From: an uncultured delta proteobacterium
Lineage (GTDB): Bacteria; Desulfobacterota; Desulfomonilia; Desulfomonilales; Desulfomonilaceae
Assembly: GCA_963789265.1 (NCBI GenBank)
Contig: CAWBKB010000003.1
Location: forward strand, 1,097,988-1,161,987
Reading direction: 5' to 3'
Length of the DNA: 64,000 bases
Shown here: in pieces, positions 15,950 to 26,448 of the stretch
How positions within the stretch are numbered: the first letter of the stretch is position 1
How the letters are laid out: each line of letters starts with the position of its first letter
Position numbers and translations under genes: made by a program
The notes under the pieces: generated by a model
Database searches by the model: none
What the model saw: only the letters and a program-made list of their open reading frames with translations
Told to the model about the DNA's origin: nothing

Positions 15950-16603
15950 ATGGAAGCCTGGTGGCAGGGACTTTCAACGCTGACTCAAGTTTTCTTCCTG
16001 GGAGCGCTCTTTTTCTCGGTAATTTCAGCCGGTCAAGTGGTATCCATGTTGTTCGGCGTGGGGCACTTCCACGGACACCTGGATCATGCGGGAGGCTTGC
16101 ACCATACGGATTTGTCTTCGCACCACTTAGGCTCATCTCCGGGGGGTGGGGGCCATTCGCATGTAGCACATCCTCATGAGGCTCACGGCGCCGAGAAATC
16201 TGCATTCACCTTTGTCTCCATGCGCTCGTTGATTACCTTCGGCACGCTATTTTGCTGGTCTGGGACCCTTTACTTGATGGGAGGCACCCATGCGGTCTGG
16301 GCGATAGGATTCAGCGTGGTATGGGGACTGCTCGGCATGTTAGTCGTTTCTTATCTGATGTACCGGCTGCTCAATTTGGAAGAAATCGGCAATATTGATC
16401 TTGGTACTGCACTGTTTGAAGAGGGCACGGTGTACATCGGCATCCCCTTGAATGGGACCGGCCAAGTCCGGATCATGGTCAGTGGGGTGGTCAGCTACGT
16501 CAAAGCGCGTTCCAAGACAGGGGAAGCAGTCAGTCGCGGAACAAAAGTGCGAGTTGTAGGAGTCTCCGACCAGAGTGTCATAGAGGTCGAGCCTGTAGAG
16601 TAA
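15950..16603 (+). CDS. NfeD-like membrane partner of SPFH protein, with His-rich loop
   Basis: TM helices, C-terminal OB-like GTVYIGIP...G..VRVV; upstream of flotillin. Confidence 0.8.
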   Translation: MEAWWQGLSTLTQVFFLGALFFSVISAGQVVSMLFGVGHFHGHLDHAGGLHHTDLSSHHLGSSPGGGGHSHVAHPHEAHGAEKSAFTFVSMRSLITFGTLFCWSGTLYLMGGTHAVWAIGFSVVWGLLGMLVVSYLMYRLLNLEEIGNIDLGTALFEEGTVYIGIPLNGTGQVRIMVSGVVSYVKARSKTGEAVSRGTKVRVVGVSDQSVIEVEPVE

Positions 16604-16624
16604 AAAATCGAAAAGGAGATACGT

Positions 16625-18145
16625 ATGGGAACAGCGGTCATCTTAATCATAATTCTGGCCATCTTCGTGGCCGCAATTCTTCAGATGTTCATGAGTCGGT
16701 TCAAGCGCTGTCCGTCAAATAAGATTCTAGTGATCTATGGAAAGACCGGACAGGGCGTTGCCAAATGCGTACACGGCGGAGCAGCTTTCGTCTGGCCCGT
16801 CGTCCAGTCGTACGATTGGCTGGATCTGGATCCCTTCGACATTACCTTGGAGCTAACCAGCGCGCTGTCTCATGAGAATATTCGAGTGACCGTGCCCACT
16901 ACGGTCACTGCGGCGATAAGTACCGAAGAAGGGCTGATGCAAAACGCCGCGATCCGCCTCCTCGGCCGTAGCAGGGAGGAAGTTCAGAGGCTGGCTCAGG
17001 ACATTATTCTGGGTCAGATGCGGGCTGTTATGGCAACCATGCGCATCGAAGAGATCAACCGTGACCGGATCTCATTTATGGCCAAGGTGAACGAGGCGGT
17101 GGCAATAGAAATCGAGAAAATCGGTCTTTCAGTCATAAACGTCAACATCAAGGACGTTGAGGACGAAAGCGGGTACATAAAGGCTCTGGGGCGCAAGGCG
17201 GCTGCTGAGGCCATTAATCAGGCTATGATAGACGTAGCCGAACAGGATAAGATCGGGAAAATCGGAGTGGCCGAACGAGACCGCGATCAGCGTCGCGCGG
17301 TCGCTGGAGCGACTGCGGAAGCGGCTGTTGGAGAAGCAGAGGCAGAATCGAATCGTCGTAAAGCGGTCGCAGCGGCCAACGCGTTGGCGGCGGTCGGCGA
17401 AGCACAGGCTGAGCGGGACCGCAGGCAGCAGACGTCATTGCTCGACGCCCAGGCCGTTGAGACCGAAACTACTGCAAATGCCAATAAGGCCGGCTACCAT
17501 GCGAGCCAGAAGGTGGCCGAAGAAGAAGCGAGAAGCAAATCCCAATCAGCCGCGATGAAGGCAGACGGGGCTATACGAGTCGCTCAGGAAGAAGCCCAAA
17601 AAGCGGCCGAAGAGGCTCGTGCCCATCGGGAACAGGCGCGGCTTAATGCAGAGGTTGTCGTACCCGCGGAGGCTGCCAAACAAAAGGCGGTGGTAGAAGC
17701 TGAAGCGGAGCGACAGCAGAAGATACTGGTGGCCCAGGGTGAGGCGGAAGCGGTGACGGTCAGGATGCAGGCCGAAGGCAAAGGGCAGCAGGCCATTCTT
17801 GACGGGAAAGCCGGGGGGTACAGATCGCTCGTCGCGGCGTGCGCGCAGGAACCCAGCCTTATGGCCGCGTTGCTACTCATCGAGAAGTTGGTGGACGTGG
17901 CTCGCATCCAGACCGAAGCTGTGAAGAACCTGCCCATAGAAAAAATCATGGTCTGGGATGGCGGTGGGGACAGCGGTATGTCAAACTTGGGGCAGCGCAT
18001 CATGGGCATACTCCCTCCCATGCACGAGTTGGCCAGGATGGCCGGCCTGGAGTTGCCCGAATTCCTTGGTAAGATCGAGTTCAAGAAGGAAGGATCGCCG
18101 GACGAGCCCCTCTCGGCATCACCGGAAAAGAAGAAAGATGATTGA
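16625..18145 (+). CDS. flotillin-like SPFH/band 7 protein
   Basis: N-terminal TM, GGAAFVWP, SPFH domain, AEA-rich coiled coil. Confidence 0.93.
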   Translation: MGTAVILIIILAIFVAAILQMFMSRFKRCPSNKILVIYGKTGQGVAKCVHGGAAFVWPVVQSYDWLDLDPFDITLELTSALSHENIRVTVPTTVTAAISTEEGLMQNAAIRLLGRSREEVQRLAQDIILGQMRAVMATMRIEEINRDRISFMAKVNEAVAIEIEKIGLSVINVNIKDVEDESGYIKALGRKAAAEAINQAMIDVAEQDKIGKIGVAERDRDQRRAVAGATAEAAVGEAEAESNRRKAVAAANALAAVGEAQAERDRRQQTSLLDAQAVETETTANANKAGYHASQKVAEEEARSKSQSAAMKADGAIRVAQEEAQKAAEEARAHREQARLNAEVVVPAEAAKQKAVVEAEAERQQKILVAQGEAEAVTVRMQAEGKGQQAILDGKAGGYRSLVAACAQEPSLMAALLLIEKLVDVARIQTEAVKNLPIEKIMVWDGGGDSGMSNLGQRIMGILPPMHELARMAGLELPEFLGKIEFKKEGSPDEPLSASPEKKKDD

Positions 18146-18156
18146 TGGGGGCAGCC

Positions 18157-18330
18157 TAGTGCTGATTACTCCGTTTCGCGAACACGGTGACGATAGGAAC
18201 TCCCGTATGCAAGAAGATTGCTTCGCTGCGCTCGCAATGACAGATAGCGGGAATGTCATTGCGAGGAGTGAAACGACGAAGCAATCTCAATCGTGAAAAT
18301 GTGTTACCGAACTTATGAAACATAACACTA
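18157..18330. repeat. MITE-like element carrying a REP doublet (core 18215-18287)
   Basis: agattgcttcgctgcgctcgcaatgaca ... tgtcattgcgaggagtgaaacgacgaagcaatct; imperfect terminal IR tagtg...aacac / gtgtt...cacta. Confidence 0.75.
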
Positions 18331-18349
18331 AGGCAAATAGGAGAAACGT

Positions 18350-18859
18350 ATGCCCGCCAACGAGAAAGTGATCAAGATCTTCGAGTACGCGCTTAACCAG
18401 GAAAATACCGGCCTGAGCTTTTTTCAGCATTCGCTGGAGCGTTTGGGAATGGGCGCGGCCGTTACTGCGTTCAAGACCTTAATTCAAGAAGAACAAATGC
18501 ATATCGCCTTCATAACCCGAATTATCAGCGAACTTAAAGAGGATCGAGAACTTCAGCTCTCGAATATGAAAGACCTTGTTATGGAGCCAACGGACTATTT
18601 CGACGATCGCGCTCGGTCGGAGTTCCTCGAGAGGTGTATTGAGGGTTCCATGGTGCCCGATGTGACCGTTTTCAACACAGCCTGGCTCATCGAGAAGGAC
18701 TTGAGCGAGTACTACGCGGCAATGGCCGACCTAACGGAGGGGAAGGCTAAACAAGCTCTTACGATGCTCTCAAATTGGGAGAAGGAGCACGAAAAGTTCT
18801 TCCGGGAATTTCGCGACAGACTCTCTGATATTTATGCTCTAATGCCCTGGGGAGGATAA
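18350..18859 (+). CDS. ferritin-like (rubrerythrin-type diiron) protein
   Basis: Two E...ExxH motifs (EEQMH, WEKEH); AGGAG RBS. Confidence 0.85.
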   Translation: MPANEKVIKIFEYALNQENTGLSFFQHSLERLGMGAAVTAFKTLIQEEQMHIAFITRIISELKEDRELQLSNMKDLVMEPTDYFDDRARSEFLERCIEGSMVPDVTVFNTAWLIEKDLSEYYAAMADLTEGKAKQALTMLSNWEKEHEKFFREFRDRLSDIYALMPWGG

Positions 18860-19077: not shown

Positions 19078-20592
19078 GTGACCAAATCCATCCTGGAATA
19101 TCATGACCAGACCGCATACCGGCGACATGGCATGTCGGGGCATGGACTGGATTGGGGCACTCAGCCGGACGTGTTCAAAACTTATCCCGGCTTGGAAACG
19201 ATTTGTTTGCCGGAGCCAACTCCCTGGCCGACAGATAATTTGTTCACACTCCTGGAACGAGACGTTGCTCATTCGACGCCCCTGGAGATCGACCACTATT
19301 GCCTGGCCCTAATACTTCGCCTTACGCACTCCTTGACTGCAAAGGCCCGGCATGGCGGCGTCGATTTCTTCTATCGCAGCGTGGCTTCCGCGGGAGCTCT
19401 TTACCCGTTCGAGCTGTACGTCGGCTTGGCGAACATCCCGGGCCTAAATAGCGGGCTTTACCACCACAGCGTTGCCAGTCAAGGTCTGACCCTATTGCGA
19501 GAAGGCAACGCCAACCTCGCTCTGGACGGCGCGGTGAAAACCCGGCGGGACACGCCCCCCGGCCTGGTCTTTTTTCTCACTTCCATATTCTACAGAAGCT
19601 CCTGGAAATATCGCGATCGCGCCTATCGGTATCATCTGCTCGATACCGGCCATTTGGCGGAAAACCTAGCCTTAGCTCTCACAGCCGCGTCTGTCCCGTT
19701 TGAGGTTCATTACGACTTTGCGGACGAATCCGTTAACAGCCTGTTAGGAGTGGACCCGACACTCGAGGCCTGCCTGGCGATAGTATGCGCATGGAATGAG
19801 ACCAGTGGCCCGAGCGACTCGGTGGACCTGACCGAGCCTGAAATCGACCTGGCGGATGCGAGCCGTGTTGCGGCAAGAGAGGCCCACTATCCTTTTATTC
19901 AAGAATTTCATTCAGCTACTTCTCCCGTGGTCGAACCTCCCCGCGACGGGCCTCGAATGCTGCACAACTTGGGACCCATCGTTAAAGAAACTGGCAAAAT
20001 TAACCGCGCGGAGAAATCGCCGGAGCTGATGAACTATTCTGAAGCGGTTCTCAAGAGACGGTCCATGCGGAACTTTGTGCGGGAAGAATTGCCCGCGGAC
20101 TGCATGGCGGCTTTTTTGAAAAGCCTTTGTTATGAAACGGGAGCCAAGAGCCGCTCTCAGCCGACTGGTAGCGATGTGATTTCAGTAGGGCTCCTTGTCG
20201 GAAAAGCTGAGGGATTCGCCCCTGGCTTCTATTTGCTTGACCGCCGCCATGAGTCGATAGGTCCGGTGTGCCAAGGTGATATGATGGATCGTATGGCGCT
20301 TGTCTGCCTGGATCAGGCCTGGTTGGCCAATTGTGCGATTCATTTCTTGTTTATCAGTAACTTGAAGCTTCTCGAAGAGAGCCGTGGCCCGCGAGATTAC
20401 CGCCATGCAATGCTGTCCGCGGGCCGTCTCGGGCAACTCATCTACTTGGCGGCTACATCTATGCGATTGGGATGCTGCGGAGTCGGAGCATTCTATGATG
20501 AAGAGGCGGTAGAACTATGCGGGCTGAACGACCAATCGAGGCTGTTGTATCTTGTGGCTGTTGGCCCGGTCAAGAAATGGTCTGTGAAATAG
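19078..20592 (+). CDS. SagB/ThcOx-family double nitroreductase-domain flavoprotein
   Basis: SAGALYPFELY, WKYRDRAYR...DTGH, second domain RRSMRNF...AGRLGQ...GVGAFYDEE. Confidence 0.9.
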   Translation: MTKSILEYHDQTAYRRHGMSGHGLDWGTQPDVFKTYPGLETICLPEPTPWPTDNLFTLLERDVAHSTPLEIDHYCLALILRLTHSLTAKARHGGVDFFYRSVASAGALYPFELYVGLANIPGLNSGLYHHSVASQGLTLLREGNANLALDGAVKTRRDTPPGLVFFLTSIFYRSSWKYRDRAYRYHLLDTGHLAENLALALTAASVPFEVHYDFADESVNSLLGVDPTLEACLAIVCAWNETSGPSDSVDLTEPEIDLADASRVAAREAHYPFIQEFHSATSPVVEPPRDGPRMLHNLGPIVKETGKINRAEKSPELMNYSEAVLKRRSMRNFVREELPADCMAAFLKSLCYETGAKSRSQPTGSDVISVGLLVGKAEGFAPGFYLLDRRHESIGPVCQGDMMDRMALVCLDQAWLANCAIHFLFISNLKLLEESRGPRDYRHAMLSAGRLGQLIYLAATSMRLGCCGVGAFYDEEAVELCGLNDQSRLLYLVAVGPVKKWSVK

Positions 20593-20605
20593 AGAGGAGG
20601 CCGTC

Positions 20606-21448
20606 ATGGCATTCGCAACTCTAAAGAAGCTCTTTACGCCGGTGGAATCCATTGATGCCGATCAACTCAGAGCTTATTTAGCCGAACATAAAGAGGGAAC
20701 TTTCACCCTGCTGGACGTTCGTCAACCGGGAGAATACAAGCAGGCTCATATTCCCGGTGCGAAACTGATCCCGATAGCGCAGTTGCCCGATCGAATGCGA
20801 GAACTTGACTCTGAAAAGCCGGTCATTGCGTACTGAGCGGTCGGCGGCCGGAGCCGAGTTGCGGCTCAATTGCTGTCAGGTCGCGGCTTTAGGGAGGTAT
20901 ATAACCTCAAGGGCGGAATAATGGGTTGGAATGGTCTGAAAGCCGAAGGCCCGATGGAACTGCATTTGGATATTGTGCGCGGTGATGAAACGCCGGCAGA
21001 GATCATTCGGCTGGCGTACGGGATGGAACACAGCTTGGGCGGTTTTTATCGTGCTGCAAAAACGAAAACCCTGGACGATGATCTCGCAGGCCTTTTGGAA
21101 AGGTTGATAACCGTCGAAGACAAGCACAAACAATATCTGTTCGAATTGTTCCAATCACTGGAGTCTTCCGGAATCAGCCTTGAAACCTTCGAGGCCGATG
21201 TTATACCCAAGGTCATGGAAGGCGGATTTGATACCGATGAATTCATGAAGCAAAACGAGATATTCCTGGATGACGTCCCTTCATTGCTGGATTTGTCCAT
21301 GATGCTCGAAACTCAAGCCCTGGACTTGTATCTCCGCTTCGCGGACAAGAGTGAAAACCAGAAGACGAAAGAAGTTCTCTATCGCATAGGCGATGAGGAA
21401 AAGGCTCATCTGGCCGCGCTCGGCGACATGCGTGACAAGAGGTTGTAG
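20606..21448 (+). CDS. selenocysteine-containing rhodanese / ferritin-like fusion protein (UGA 20834-20836 = Sec77, 280 aa)
   Basis: ORFs 20606-20836 and 20870-21448 are in frame; readthrough gives VIAY-U-AVGGRS = rhodanese active loop; followed by VYNLKGG and two ExxH motifs. Confidence 0.9.
20837..20867 (+). promoter_or_regulatory. bacterial SECIS-like hairpin
   Basis: gagccg(20851-56)-agttg-cggctc(20862-67); loop starts 21 nt after UGA, G at loop position 2. Confidence 0.7.
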
Positions 21449-21473: not shown

Positions 21474-21588
21474 TAAGAACACGGCACCGAAGAGAAGATT
21501 GCTTCGTCGTTTCACTCCTCGCAATGACATTTCCAACACCTGTCATTGCGAGCGCAGCGAAGCAATCTTCTTCTGGACCGGGTTCTTA
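21474..21588. repeat. REP doublet (core 21496-21567), inverted copy of 18215-18287
   Basis: agattgcttcgtcgtttcactcctcgcaatgaca ... tgtcattgcgagcgcagcgaagcaatct; flanking IR taagaacacgg / ccgggttctta. Confidence 0.8.
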
Positions 21589-21775: not shown

Positions 21776-21969
21776 GTCCCCGCGGGACGCGGGGCAAATC
21801 GGTCAAACCTTTTGGCAAAGCCTATAACAAAACCGTATTTGCGAAAAGGAGTACTAAGTGCTGTGCGACCCGTGCTGATGCTGTCCTCGCCGGCTGAACC
21901 CATTGAATTAGACCGGCTTGTGCCTTATCTTTAGTGAGTAAGAATGCTGAAATGCAATGGGGGCAATCG

Positions 21970-22170
21970 ATGAAAACTACCGTTAAAGTCACAGGAATGG
22001 CGTGCAATCACTGCGTCATGGCCGTAAGCAAGGCACTAAATCAAATTGACGGCGTGAGTGACGTACAAGTGGACCTCGATAAAGGCGAAGCGACCCTGGA
22101 ACACGGAACAGCCGTGGAGATGTCTCAAATCAAGCAACAGGTCGAGAAGGCAGGTTATAAACTTGGCTAA
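21970..22170 (+). CDS. copZ: copper chaperone (HMA domain)
   Basis: GMACNHC motif, 66 aa, upstream of P1B ATPase. Confidence 0.92.
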
Positions 22171-24629
22171 GGAAACCATTCAGATTCAGGGCATGAGCTG
22201 CGCGGCCTGCGTGCGCCGAGTCGAGCAGGGTTTGAGCACTCTCGCGGGCGTTGATGGCGCTTCGGTCAATTTTGCCACCGAACGGGCTTCTGTCGATTAT
22301 GACCCTGATGCTGTCAGTCCCGCGGCCATGAAAGCAAAGATTCGAGAACTCGGTTACGAAGTGGTCGAGTCTCAACCCAAGTCTGGCGATAAGCTTCAGA
22401 AGACAACTGTCTCTATTGGCGGTATGAGCTGCGCATCTTGTGTTCGGCGAGTGGAAGGCGCACTCAAGGCTTTGCCCGGAGTCAAAGACGCCTCCGCTAA
22501 TTTGGCCACTTCCAAAGCGACCTTGATCCATACCGCGGATCTCTTGAATCTAACTGAAGTGAAGAAAGTGTTAGACGACGCGGGCTATGAATTTCTCGGT
22601 CTCGTCGGTGAGGCGGAAGCCGATCCCATGGAGGCTGCCCGCCGTAAGGACTTGGCCGACCTGAAATTAAAGCTCGTTGTGGGTGCGGTCTCGAGCGTCC
22701 TTATCCACGTGGGGTCCTCTCCTCATTTCTTTTCGTTCCTTCAGATAGTCCCTCATCATTTGATGCTCTTGATCCTTTTTGTCATGACCACCCCTGTAGT
22801 TTTCTGGGTGGGGAGCCGGTTCTTCGTTGGCGCTTACAAGGCCGCCCTGCAGCGAACAACCGACATGAACACTCTGGTGGCTGTGGGCGCGTTTTCGGCA
22901 TACCTTTACTCTTCTCTTGTGACGTTTTTTCCCAAGTTTTTCGAGGCCGCGGGTGTTACACCCCATGTCTACTTTGACGGTGCCGCGATGATCATAACGC
23001 TCATTCTCCTTGGAAGACTCCTTGAAGCAAGGGCCAAAGGCAAGACATCCGAGGCAATGAAAAGACTGATCGGGCTGAAACCCAAGACTGCGCGGCTTAT
23101 CAAGGACGGCCAAGAAATTGACGTTCCGATCGACCTTGTCACAACCAGTGACGTGATACTTGTGAGACCCGGCGAGAAGATCCCCACGGACGGCATCGTG
23201 CTCTCGGGCATATCCGCTGTTGACGAGTCCATGTTGACCGGTGAAAGCATCCCGGTAGGCAAGGAAGTCGGCAACGAGGTTTTTGGAGCCACAATAAACA
23301 AGAGCGGAAGCTTCACATTCCGGGCCACCAAAGTAGGAGCGGACACGGCACTCGCCCAGATTATCCGACTGGTGGAAGAAGCCCAGGGCTCAAAGGCTCC
23401 CATACAACGAATTGCCGACAGAGTGGCTTCTATTTTCGTGCCGGTGGTTTTCGGCATCGCGACCTTGACCTTCGTGGTGTGGTATTTTCTCGTGCCCGAA
23501 CCACTTTTCAGCCGAGCCTTGTTGAATTTCGTCTCGGTGTTGATCATCTCGTGTCCGTGCGCAATGGGATTGGCGACGCCGACCGCGATAATGGTGGGCA
23601 CAGGATTGGGGGCCGAGAAGGGCATCTTGATAAAGGGCGGAGAGAGTCTCGAAAAGGCTTACAAGCTAACCGCGGTGGTGTTTGACAAGACCGGGACACT
23701 GACAAAGGGTGAGCCCGCTGTTACAGAGATTCTGCCCGCGGACGGAGTGCTGCCGGAGGAGCTGTTGAAGATTGCTTTTTCCATTGAGGCGGTGTCCGAG
23801 CACCCCTTGGCACAGGCCATTATTGAAAAAGGCCGCTCTCAAGGATTGGAGCCCCTGCCCCTGAAGGACTTCGAAGCTTTGTCAGGACTTGGAGTAAAAG
23901 GGATTGTCGAAGAGAAAAAAGTTTCTGCTGGGAAACTTGCGGCTGATGGAGCAGCAAGGAATGCACATGAACGGCTTGGACGCCCAAGCGGCCCAATTGC
24001 TCCAAGAAGGAAAGACCTCTGTTTTCGTTGCCCAACAGGGGCAGGTCATGGGCCTCATCGGCCTATCCGACACCCCCCGGGAATCTGCCCGTGAAACGGT
24101 AAATGCCCTAAAGAATATGGGCCTCAAAGTTATGATGATAACCGGGGATAATCGCGAAACAGCGCGAGCCGTCGCGGAGGCGGTGGGCATACAAGAAGTG
24201 TTGGCGGAAGTGTTGCCCGGCGATAAGGCTGCCGAGATAACCAGGCTTCAACAGAACGGACAAGTCGTTGCAATGGTAGGTGACGGCATAAATGACGCGC
24301 CGGCTTTGACGGCCGCGGATATTGGGATTGCGCTCGGCGCCGGGACTGACGTGGCGATGGAAGCCGGGGACATCACCCTGATCAAGAATGATTTACGGCT
24401 CGTCCCTTCTGCAATAAAGCTTTCGTTCAAGACTATGAAGGTTATCAAGCAGAATCTGTTTTGGGCCTTTTTCTACAATTCGCTGGGAATTCCGATTGCC
24501 GCGGGGGTTCTGTATCCATTCTTCGGGATTCTATTAAACCCGGTATTTGCGGCCGCGGCCATGGCATTCAGCTCGGTGTCCGTCGTAAGTAATTCGCTTC
24601 GCTTAAGGTGGTCCGGAGCGGCAGACTGA
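22163..24629 (+). CDS. copA: Cu(I)-exporting P1B-type ATPase; +1 frameshift near 23922-23924
   Basis: Two GMSCxxC, TGES, CPC, DKTGT, HP, GDGIND, YN and MAFSS motifs split over two frames. Confidence 0.92.
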
Positions 24630-24820: not shown

Positions 24821-26448
24821 CTATTCGTCGTCTTCGTCATCCGGCCATTCAATGAAAGGCTTTTCCTGATCGACCATAGCATTGACCATGAGTTCCACCA
24901 GGCCGGTGTACCAAATGCCCGTCTTCTCAAAGACCTCGTAATGTTCGAAAAGACTTCGGGTTTGGCCCTTGCAGTTGGAGCACGGTGCGCACACCATCTT
25001 GCGAATGGACGGATCCATCTCCCCTTGGAAGGCGTTCAGGTATTGGGTCAGTTTTTTCCTTCCCGACACCAGCCGCCTCCAATCCGGAAAATTCCCCGAC
25101 TCAATGATGGCGAATCCGGACCCACCTCCGCAACAGTAGTTTTCGACTCCATGCGGGGTCATTTCTCGGAACCGCCCCGGGGGAAAGATGGCGTTCAGAA
25201 TATTCCTCTGAGGTTGAACTATTCCCATAATGCGCACGACATTGCACGGATCGTGAAGTGTGACGGGAAAGTCGTTCTTATTCGGGTCAAACTTTATTTT
25301 GCCGGTCTTTACTATGTCCCATAGCAAAGGGAACGAACTTTCCCTCGGGACGAGCTGCTCGCCCGGGAGGAGTCGGTCCGCGATAACAGTGAGGGCCTTG
25401 TGAGCGTGCCCGCACTCGCCGATGACTATCTTTCTCACTCCAAGATTTCGTGCCACTTCGAGGTGCTTCAAAGCTACTCTGGCAAATTGGACGTCATCGT
25501 AAAAGAGCCCGTAGTTCACGGCATCGTATCCAAGCAGTTCCGTGGAAAGTGTATAGTCGATCCCGGCGGCATCGAAGAGGATGGCGAAGGACATAGGATT
25601 TTCTGGCCATGCCATAAATTCGCCTGCATTGTGCAAGAGTAGGTACGTCGGCACCTTTCTTGTTAAGAGGGATTTTGATCTTCTTCCCCGTCTTTTCTTC
25701 GATGTCGTCTTCGAGATACTCAATGATGTCTTCAACAGCCGCCTTGATCATGCCCGTGCTGGAACCGAATTTCAGGTGTTTTACCGAACCCTTTTCGTGA
25801 AGCTCCGCGGGTGCGATTCCCAGTTCCTGGCTAAAGATCTTCCTCAACTCATGCGTGATCAGCATGTTGTCTACCCCTACGGGGCACACCTGAGTGCATC
25901 GGCGGCACATCGAGCACCGATAGGCCAATTCGGCAAGTCGAGCGACGGTTTCCCAGTTGAGATCAATGTCATGCCCTCGGAAGCCCGCAAGGAGCCTTCC
26001 TCCTGTCGAGAGATATTTTTTGGCGATTTTCCGTAGCACGTCTGCACGAAAGGTCGGCCGGTACATGTCTTGTCGGCCGCTCATCTCATATACTTGGCAA
26101 GCTTCGGAACAGGTTCTGGCACTTGGCGCAATATTCCAGGGAGAGCGTGAGAGGCTGAAGGAACGCCCAGTTATTCTCTTTGGTCAGCAGTTTTCGAAAG
26201 CCTTCGAGGAACGCTTCCACGAGCTTTTGCTCTTCTTCCGGAGTCTCCGGCTTGGGTAGATTCAAGGCACTGACTCCGTCAAGAGAATGCTCCCAGCGTT
26301 GCTTCTGGTCTTCAGTAAGCTCCGTAATGGGTTTTTCCACATAATTCTCGTACGGAGGCGGTAGCGGGGGAAGATCCTCAATCTTAACTTCTCCCAACTG
26401 TTCGGTCTCTTTCGATATATCCTCAGGTTTCATCTGACGTCCTCTCAT
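24821..26448 (-). CDS. DsrK/HmeD-like Fe-S, CCG-domain heterodisulfide reductase subunit; frameshifts near 26114 and 25646
   Basis: Repaired CAKCQTCSEAC, CSMCRRCTQVCP, ECGHA, HDPCN, CCGGGSG, CSNCKGQ. Confidence 0.85.

Follow-up and report, generated by a model that had tools for sequence, protein, structure and literature searches.

A predicted selenocysteine rhodanese joined to a ferritin-like, putative diiron domain, divided by gene calling in a Desulfomonilaceae genome

A gene that is split at a TGA codon in public calls very likely encodes one protein of 280 residues with selenocysteine (Sec) in the active site of a rhodanese domain, which is followed by a ferritin-like bundle with a predicted diiron site. 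The gene lies in the window, the whole stretch of 64,000 nucleotides of contig CAWBKB010000003.1 that was analysed, from an uncultured delta proteobacterium of the Desulfomonilaceae. The sequences themselves showed interchange of UGA and Cys codons at the active-site column, a SECIS-like hairpin that tracks the UGA, the Sec machinery and a conserved ligand set. The fusion gene is an ordinary further member of a catalogued predicted selenoprotein family, so the result amounts to an annotation correction and one added member of a listed family. The remaining value lies in the function of this common family and in the predicted docking of Sec on a diiron site. The features of the locus are collected in Table 1.

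Table 1. Features of the fusion gene and its surroundings (positions in the window; aa, residues of the fusion protein)
Feature	Position	Strand	Basis
Predicted Sec-rhodanese/ferritin-like diiron fusion gene, 280-aa protein	20606..21448	+	translation, Pfam, homologous loci
Shine-Dalgarno-like AGAGGAGG, 5 nt ahead of ATG	20593..20600	+	sequence
UGA within the frame (predicted Sec77), aligned with the catalytic Cys; loop Y-U-A-V-G-G-R-S	20834..20836	+	
Predicted bacterial SECIS stem-loop	20837..20884	+	folding, -25.2 kcal/mol
Conserved upper stem GAGCCG/CGGCTC, loop AGUUG	20851-20867	+	perfect in 30 of 40 TGA loci
Rhodanese domain, Pfam PF00581, aa 26-109	20681..20932	+	over cut-off; structural match aa 10-115
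Ferritin-like four-helix bundle, Pfam PF02915 (Rubrerythrin), aa 132-272	20999..21421	+	over cut-off
Predicted iron ligands of the bundle: E141, E171, H174, E235, E265, H268			
Bundle tyrosines Y148, Y242; conserved E205-G-G turn			
Two-domain SagB-like nitroreductase gene, 13 nt upstream	19078..20592	+	Pfam, locus comparison
Separate 169-aa ferritin/rubrerythrin-like gene	18350..18859	+	ORF list, Pfam
CopZ-like gene and CopA-like P1B ATPase, downstream	21934..24629	+	ORF list, Pfam

The in-frame UGA and its hairpin

The TGA of codon 77 was the single internal stop in the 280-codon frame, and with this TGA read through the surrounding residues are KPVIAY-U-AVGGRSRVAAQLL. ORF calling with table 11 cut the frame into pieces of 76 aa and 192 aa, as the preliminary description had proposed in treating two neighbouring ORFs as one gene. 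The public protein collection held records of 76 aa and 175 aa, and the whole 280-aa protein was absent. The ATG is preceded by GGAGG (20596-20600), a strong ribosome-binding motif, and apart from the Cys77 column the protein has no Cys in its own sequence. The nearest titled records were deltaproteobacterial, one of them from a Desulfomonilaceae bin with 77% identity. No paralogue was found in the source genome beyond one weak rhodanese match, a plasmid search gave no match, no RNA record carrying the gene was listed, and the promoter and terminator scan at the locus gave results no better than chance.

The codon at column 77 was inspected in the fetched homologous loci, which were the best-scoring ones. 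It was TGA in 43 of 65 loci, TGC in 20 and TGT in 2, and in each TGA locus this was the only stop within the match. Removal of three duplicates left 62 distinct loci, with TGA at 40, TGC or TGT at 22 and no other codon at this column, which agrees with the earlier placement of the UGA at the catalytic Cys of the rhodanese loop. Probable frameshifts nearby in the assembly, such as that of the CopA-like gene lying in two frames, would fit a genuine stop codon, a lesion in a pseudogene or a mistake in the assembly. This explanation is extremely improbable, because the same-column TGA was found in 40 distinct loci of several families, TAA or TAG never occurred there and the downstream frames were intact. 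Also against it, two short contigs covered the codon at a depth of 2.3 without a differing letter; these contigs came from two runs of one study, which is possibly the source of the assembly.

The hairpin reported earlier, GAGCCG-AGTTG-CGGCTC, was found with its first base as the 15th after the TGA, and it forms the top of a longer stem. The hairpin alone is modest evidence, because the folding z of the stem-loop was only -1.11 in comparison with shuffles, which is not significant by itself, and because, of the 14,334 six-frame ORFs of the source genome that end in TGA, 262 were followed by a similar 6-bp hairpin. The strong part of the evidence is its conservation. A perfect six-pair stem was present in 30 of the 40 TGA loci and in none of the 22 Cys loci, which supports the SECIS role assigned to it before; these counts are not independent events, since homologous loci are related. 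The other TGA loci had a shifted GCAGC/GCTGC register (7/40) or five pairs (3/40). The protein sequence dictates part of the stem but leaves the synonymous choices free: the stem codon Ala87 was GCT in 36 of 40 TGA loci, in comparison with 6 of 22 Cys loci and 159 of 794 other Ala codons of the TGA-locus genes.

A quick tree, built with site 77 masked, required nine changes between Sec and Cys; branches with strong support make at least four of them unavoidable. The Cys form of locus L054, among others, nested inside Sec clades. Three Cys-codon loci, L054 (genome G058), L075 (G050) and L102 (G433), adjoined UGA relatives on the tree; L054 was one pair short of the stem (5/6 retained) and L102 retained the shifted-register hairpin. 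These Cys forms are likely recent Sec-to-Cys reversions. Close UGA and TGC relatives (L054 in comparison with L059 and L062) offer a natural experiment, though a small one, on the rate at which a SECIS is lost once Sec has reverted to Cys.

All four genes of Sec synthesis and insertion that the preliminary description had wished to see were found in the source genome: selA, selB and selD were each over the profile cut-off, and selC was a tRNA-Sec with anticodon TCA. The selD gene itself has an in-frame TGA, followed by a hairpin at a spacing similar to that in the fusion gene. By analogy with established bacterial recoding, SelB and tRNA-Sec would almost certainly read the hairpin and insert Sec at codon 77. 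Besides selD (contig C7, locus L108), further probable in-frame UGA genes of the source genome were a HesB-like gene (C1 near 2145063), a peroxiredoxin-like gene with UxxC (C1 near 899765) and a GlpC-like gene with UGH (C7 near 35810); except for selD, these candidates are motif matches only, from a scan that was mostly noise.

At E 1e-20 or better, the homologues of the fusion fell into 2,823 protein clusters. Within the Desulfomonilaceae, the gene's own family, 52 of 70 genomes carried the fusion gene, with one TGA in 34, two in 1 and none in 17. In the phylum sample it was present in 99 of 401 genomes, with one TGA in 36, one TAG in 1 and no stop in 62. Because selA occurred in 69/70 family and 371/401 phylum genomes, its co-occurrence with the fusion cannot discriminate. 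Among the one-TGA genomes, 34 of 36 were listed with selA, and the remaining two (G377 and G423) had selB and tRNA-Sec, which were also present in three Cys-form genomes checked beside them. Two genomes (G207, contig C19; G189, contig C12) each showed two selB-family matches over cut-off, one of which adjoined a tRNA-Sec-family match; these may be second Sec-like systems or special elongation systems of another kind.

Domains and their predicted contact

The C-terminal half, described before as a ferritin/rubrerythrin-like bundle with two ExxH motifs, matched PF02915, and the motifs were located at E171-H174 and E265-H268. No NCBIfam model was over its cut-off for the fusion (0 of 21 listed families); the equivalog models GlpE and PspE gave 53.7 and 36.8 bits against a cut-off of 102 for each, and encapsulin cargo models matched below cut-off only. 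Conservation was determined from 114 full-length rows, made up of 113 representatives and the query; these were the sequences of 250-300 residues among 150 listed ones plus the query. Site 77 was Cys in 112 of these rows. The predicted ligands were kept in 113 (E141), 111 (E171), 114 (H174), 112 (E235), 112 (E265) and 113 (H268) rows, the tyrosines in 112 (Y148) and 110 (Y242), E205 in 112, and D240 in 97%. There was no second conserved Cys column, the next best having Cys in 13 rows, and a resolving cysteine is therefore unlikely. At position 238, 93 of the 114 rows had Ala and 15 had Ser. This position presumably corresponds to that of the extra glutamate (E97) of rubrerythrin peroxidases; the conserved E205 might stand in for that residue.

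The AlphaFold2 model of the fusion had a pLDDT of 95.8 and a pTM of 0.91, with the four-helix bundle at residues 130-279. When the rhodanese and the bundle of a Cys homologue were folded as separate chains, the score was 0.84, in comparison with 0.36 for the best of three controls. Among solved pairs 116 of 157 attained the docking mark, and among mismatched pairs 2 of 215; these figures apply only roughly here. The docking runs agreed in at least 65% of contacts, with a partner pLDDT of at least 86. The predicted interface comprised residues 76-78, 80-81 and 83-85 of the active-site loop and, on the bundle side, helices C/D around E234, E264 and H267 (numbering of P0007, one less than that of P0001). 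The three iron ligands themselves were absent from the interface list, which held only their neighbours, and the catalytic residue was outside the 25 best-resolved pairs. The conserved surface residues D240 and R244 fell in the interface. Two of the top coevolution pairs, A58-G273 and L89-T236, coincided with predicted contacts; this signal was noisy (Neff 168), and the sequences behind it were for the most part those used for the models. Structure searches found no solved chain with both a rhodanese and a ferritin-like domain. Judged from these models, the active-site face of the rhodanese probably packs on helices C/D. The earlier proposal that S/Se transfer is coupled to the diiron redox centre thus gains model support for the contact, while the coupling itself is unproven.

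The two domains might instead be chemically uncoupled, or the rhodanese loop might be a redox-sensing lid that only gates a ferroxidase or peroxidase site. The active-site face is buried in the model interface, which could represent a closed, inactive state, and stand-alone relatives of both domains are common. Retention of Sec is costly, though, and usually marks a catalytic residue. Both sites were also jointly conserved down to about 31% identity, and D240 and R244 lie in the predicted interface, so that we consider an uncoupled or merely gating arrangement improbable.

Gene neighbourhood and possible function

The SagB-like nitroreductase gene is likely co-transcribed with the fusion gene. 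A nitroreductase was directly upstream in 30 of 34 own-family loci, but this link was confined to the own family; among the 28 other loci, 12 had a neighbour of the fatty-acid-hydroxylase family. A CopA-like ATPase was downstream in 19 of the 34 own-family loci and was seen in none of the 28 outside it. FAD oxidoreductases, rubrerythrin, Ni-SOD or TauE were found at single loci (56 of 146 listed ORFs scanned, 25 loci). No Fe-S assembly gene was seen among the recurrent neighbours, within flanks of mostly 1.5 kb. These neighbours hint at redox or metal stress but do not single out a pathway.

Some further features of the locus were recorded. NfeD-like, SPFH/flotillin-like and the 169-aa ferritin-like genes stand ahead of the nitroreductase (window positions 15950-18859), and the order was similar in loci L006 and L007. 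A short palindromic repeat element lies 3' of the fusion gene (21496-21575); it was matched by dozens of unrelated contigs from three runs, with differing flanks and with inversions. A conserved ORF of about 80 aa, whose family is unassigned, was present between the fusion gene and copA in 13 own-family loci (L060 and 12 others), but it was not found in the corresponding gap of the window in the three plus frames. The CopA-like ATPase gene (22058-24629) is in two overlapping frames, probably through an assembly frameshift, and an Fe-S oxidoreductase-like gene on the minus strand (24821-26448) is likewise in three pieces.

The reading that we favour, at slightly less than an even chance, is an enzyme that reduces peroxide or oxygen and in which electrons would enter through Sec in place of rubredoxin; its chemistry we infer. 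The Sec loop, predicted to sit against the diiron four-helix bundle, would feed the bundle electrons from reduced sulfur, which is the job of the rubredoxin domain in rubrerythrin. With sulfide, polysulfide or a thiol as partner, Sec would cycle via a selenosulfide or selenopersulfide and would re-reduce the diferric site, and the diferric/diiron site would reduce H2O2 or O2. In the own family, the upstream flavin nitroreductase may supply electrons from NAD(P)H. Rubrerythrin-like bundles served by other donors are described in two papers: ferriperoxin reduces peroxide with FNR (PMC3317640), and a hydrogenase-rubrerythrin fusion also reduces peroxide (PMC11926857). Ferriperoxin was also considered as a precedent for a nitroreductase partner and was dropped, since PMC3317640 names FNR and does not contain the word 'nitroreductase'. 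Against the peroxidase reading stand the Ala or Ser at the presumed E97 position, the uncharacterised state of the nearest solved bundles together with the weak match to true rubrerythrin, the absence of the iron ligands themselves from the interface list, and the restriction of the nitroreductase link to the own family.

The Ala or Ser at this presumed position would also suit a sulfane-sulfur oxidase, in which a persulfide on Sec77 would be handed to the diiron site and the sulfur oxidised there with O2 or H2O2, in the manner of persulfide dioxygenase-rhodanese fusions (PRF) but with another metal domain. The fusion rhodanese resembles those of PRF (5ve3-5ve5) and of CoA-persulfide reductases, the loop faces the bundle in the model, and a TauE sulfite exporter adjoins one locus (L092). 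This alternative is nevertheless rather unlikely: the rhodanese is no closer to PRF than to many others, the predicted interface is on the outside of helices C/D, and the fusion has no metallo-beta-lactamase domain according to Pfam.

Copper damages Fe-S clusters, and the CopA-like gene downstream in the own family would fit a protein that, under copper or oxidative stress, donates iron held in its bundle and sulfur from its rhodanese to the repair of Fe-S clusters. The second ferritin-like gene upstream in the window points the same way, and rhodaneses distribute sulfur to Fe-S formation, as stated in PMC8346489. We find such a repair function doubtful, because the recurrent neighbours within these short flanks included no Fe-S assembly gene and because the CopA link did not appear at the 28 loci outside the family.

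In the most far-reaching reading, the catalogued rhodanese selenoprotein would represent an unrecognised class of selenium-diiron enzymes. A rhodanese-loop Sec clamped on the bundle would pass electrons or sulfur straight to the non-haem diiron centre, and sulfate reducers and their kin could then use the sulfide or polysulfide that they make to burn peroxide or O2, with no need for rubredoxin. We put this forward tentatively, as a possibility that falls somewhat short of an even chance. Should the predicted docking be right, selenium would be in direct redox contact with a diiron centre, and anaerobes would have an oxygen defence fed by sulfide. The natural Cys forms of the fusion should make expression easy.

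Comparison with catalogued selenoproteins and known relatives

The preliminary description had called Sec-rhodaneses a described family, and we found that the full-length Sec fusion already stands in print as the representative of a predicted selenoprotein family in the catalogues. A review (PMC13188914, 2026), in its Table 1 and section 7, lists a rhodanese selenoprotein under accession MBM9537886.1 as 'form 2' with the motif UxxG, and there credits it to Zhang and Gladyshev 2005. The full-length sequence of this representative is printed in row 24 of file 3 of the deep-Sep supplement (PMC12013277). Compared by eye, the printed sequence is similar in size to the fusion described here and has Sec at the same site of the same loop, followed in the same order by the first Glu and Tyr, ExxH, the EGG turn, E-x-Q-A-L-D-L-Y and the second ExxH. 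Three further entries of the catalogued protein, in file 1 of the supplement, have the same layout. Nothing of substance differs between the catalogued protein and the fusion, which likewise has a PF00581 domain and one Sec in UxxG (U77-A-V-G). Because the representative is printed at full length, the Sec site and the architecture were both already on record.

In the portions of the catalogue texts examined, the words 'ferritin' and 'rubrerythrin' had no matches, and PF00581/COG0607 only was given; JGI names on Cys-form homologues do cite both halves ('rhodanese-related sulfurtransferase/rubrerythrin'). The one thing that the examined catalogues do not say is that this selenoprotein has a predicted diiron domain. 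The supplements of PMC13326102, PMC1794560 and PMC8318568 contained nothing on the fusion family. The literature search found no functional study of a rhodanese-ferritin fusion, in agreement with the earlier statement that no characterised function was known. The short Sec rhodaneses from GOS ('Sulfurtransferase COG0607', supplement of PMC2398784) have, like the fusion, a catalytic-site Sec and a UxxGxR loop, but their read-derived sequences stop after the rhodanese domain.

The fusion shares the four-helix bundle and two ExxH motifs with rubrerythrin, ferriperoxin and sulerythrin, is over the PF02915 cut-off, and has, as in rubrerythrin, a ferritin-like domain with a diiron ligand set, here predicted from sequence and model. 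It differs from rubrerythrin in that it has no rubredoxin-like Fe(Cys)4 domain (no Pfam match; Cys only at column 77), has Ala or Ser at the presumed E97 position, and has a rhodanese predicted to be docked on the bundle. The sequence match to a true rubrerythrin in the solved-structure search was weak (E 0.11). The nearest solved relatives of the C-terminal half were TM1526 (1vjx), P. furiosus 2fzf and COG1633 (2oh3), with best C-terminal matches of E 2.7e-15 by sequence and of Z 13.6 with an rmsd of 3.6 over 137 residues by fold. Unlike the fusion, these are single-domain proteins; they are uncharacterised, and the EGG turn was missing from their printed alignments. The persulfide dioxygenase-rhodanese fusion BpPRF and the CoA-persulfide reductases with a rhodanese domain resemble the fusion in joining a rhodanese of similar fold to a redox domain. 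Their partner, however, is a metallo-beta-lactamase or a flavoprotein; the metallo-beta-lactamase persulfide dioxygenase domain of PRF was absent from the fusion in both Pfam and the model, and the place of the partner is taken by the ferritin-like bundle.
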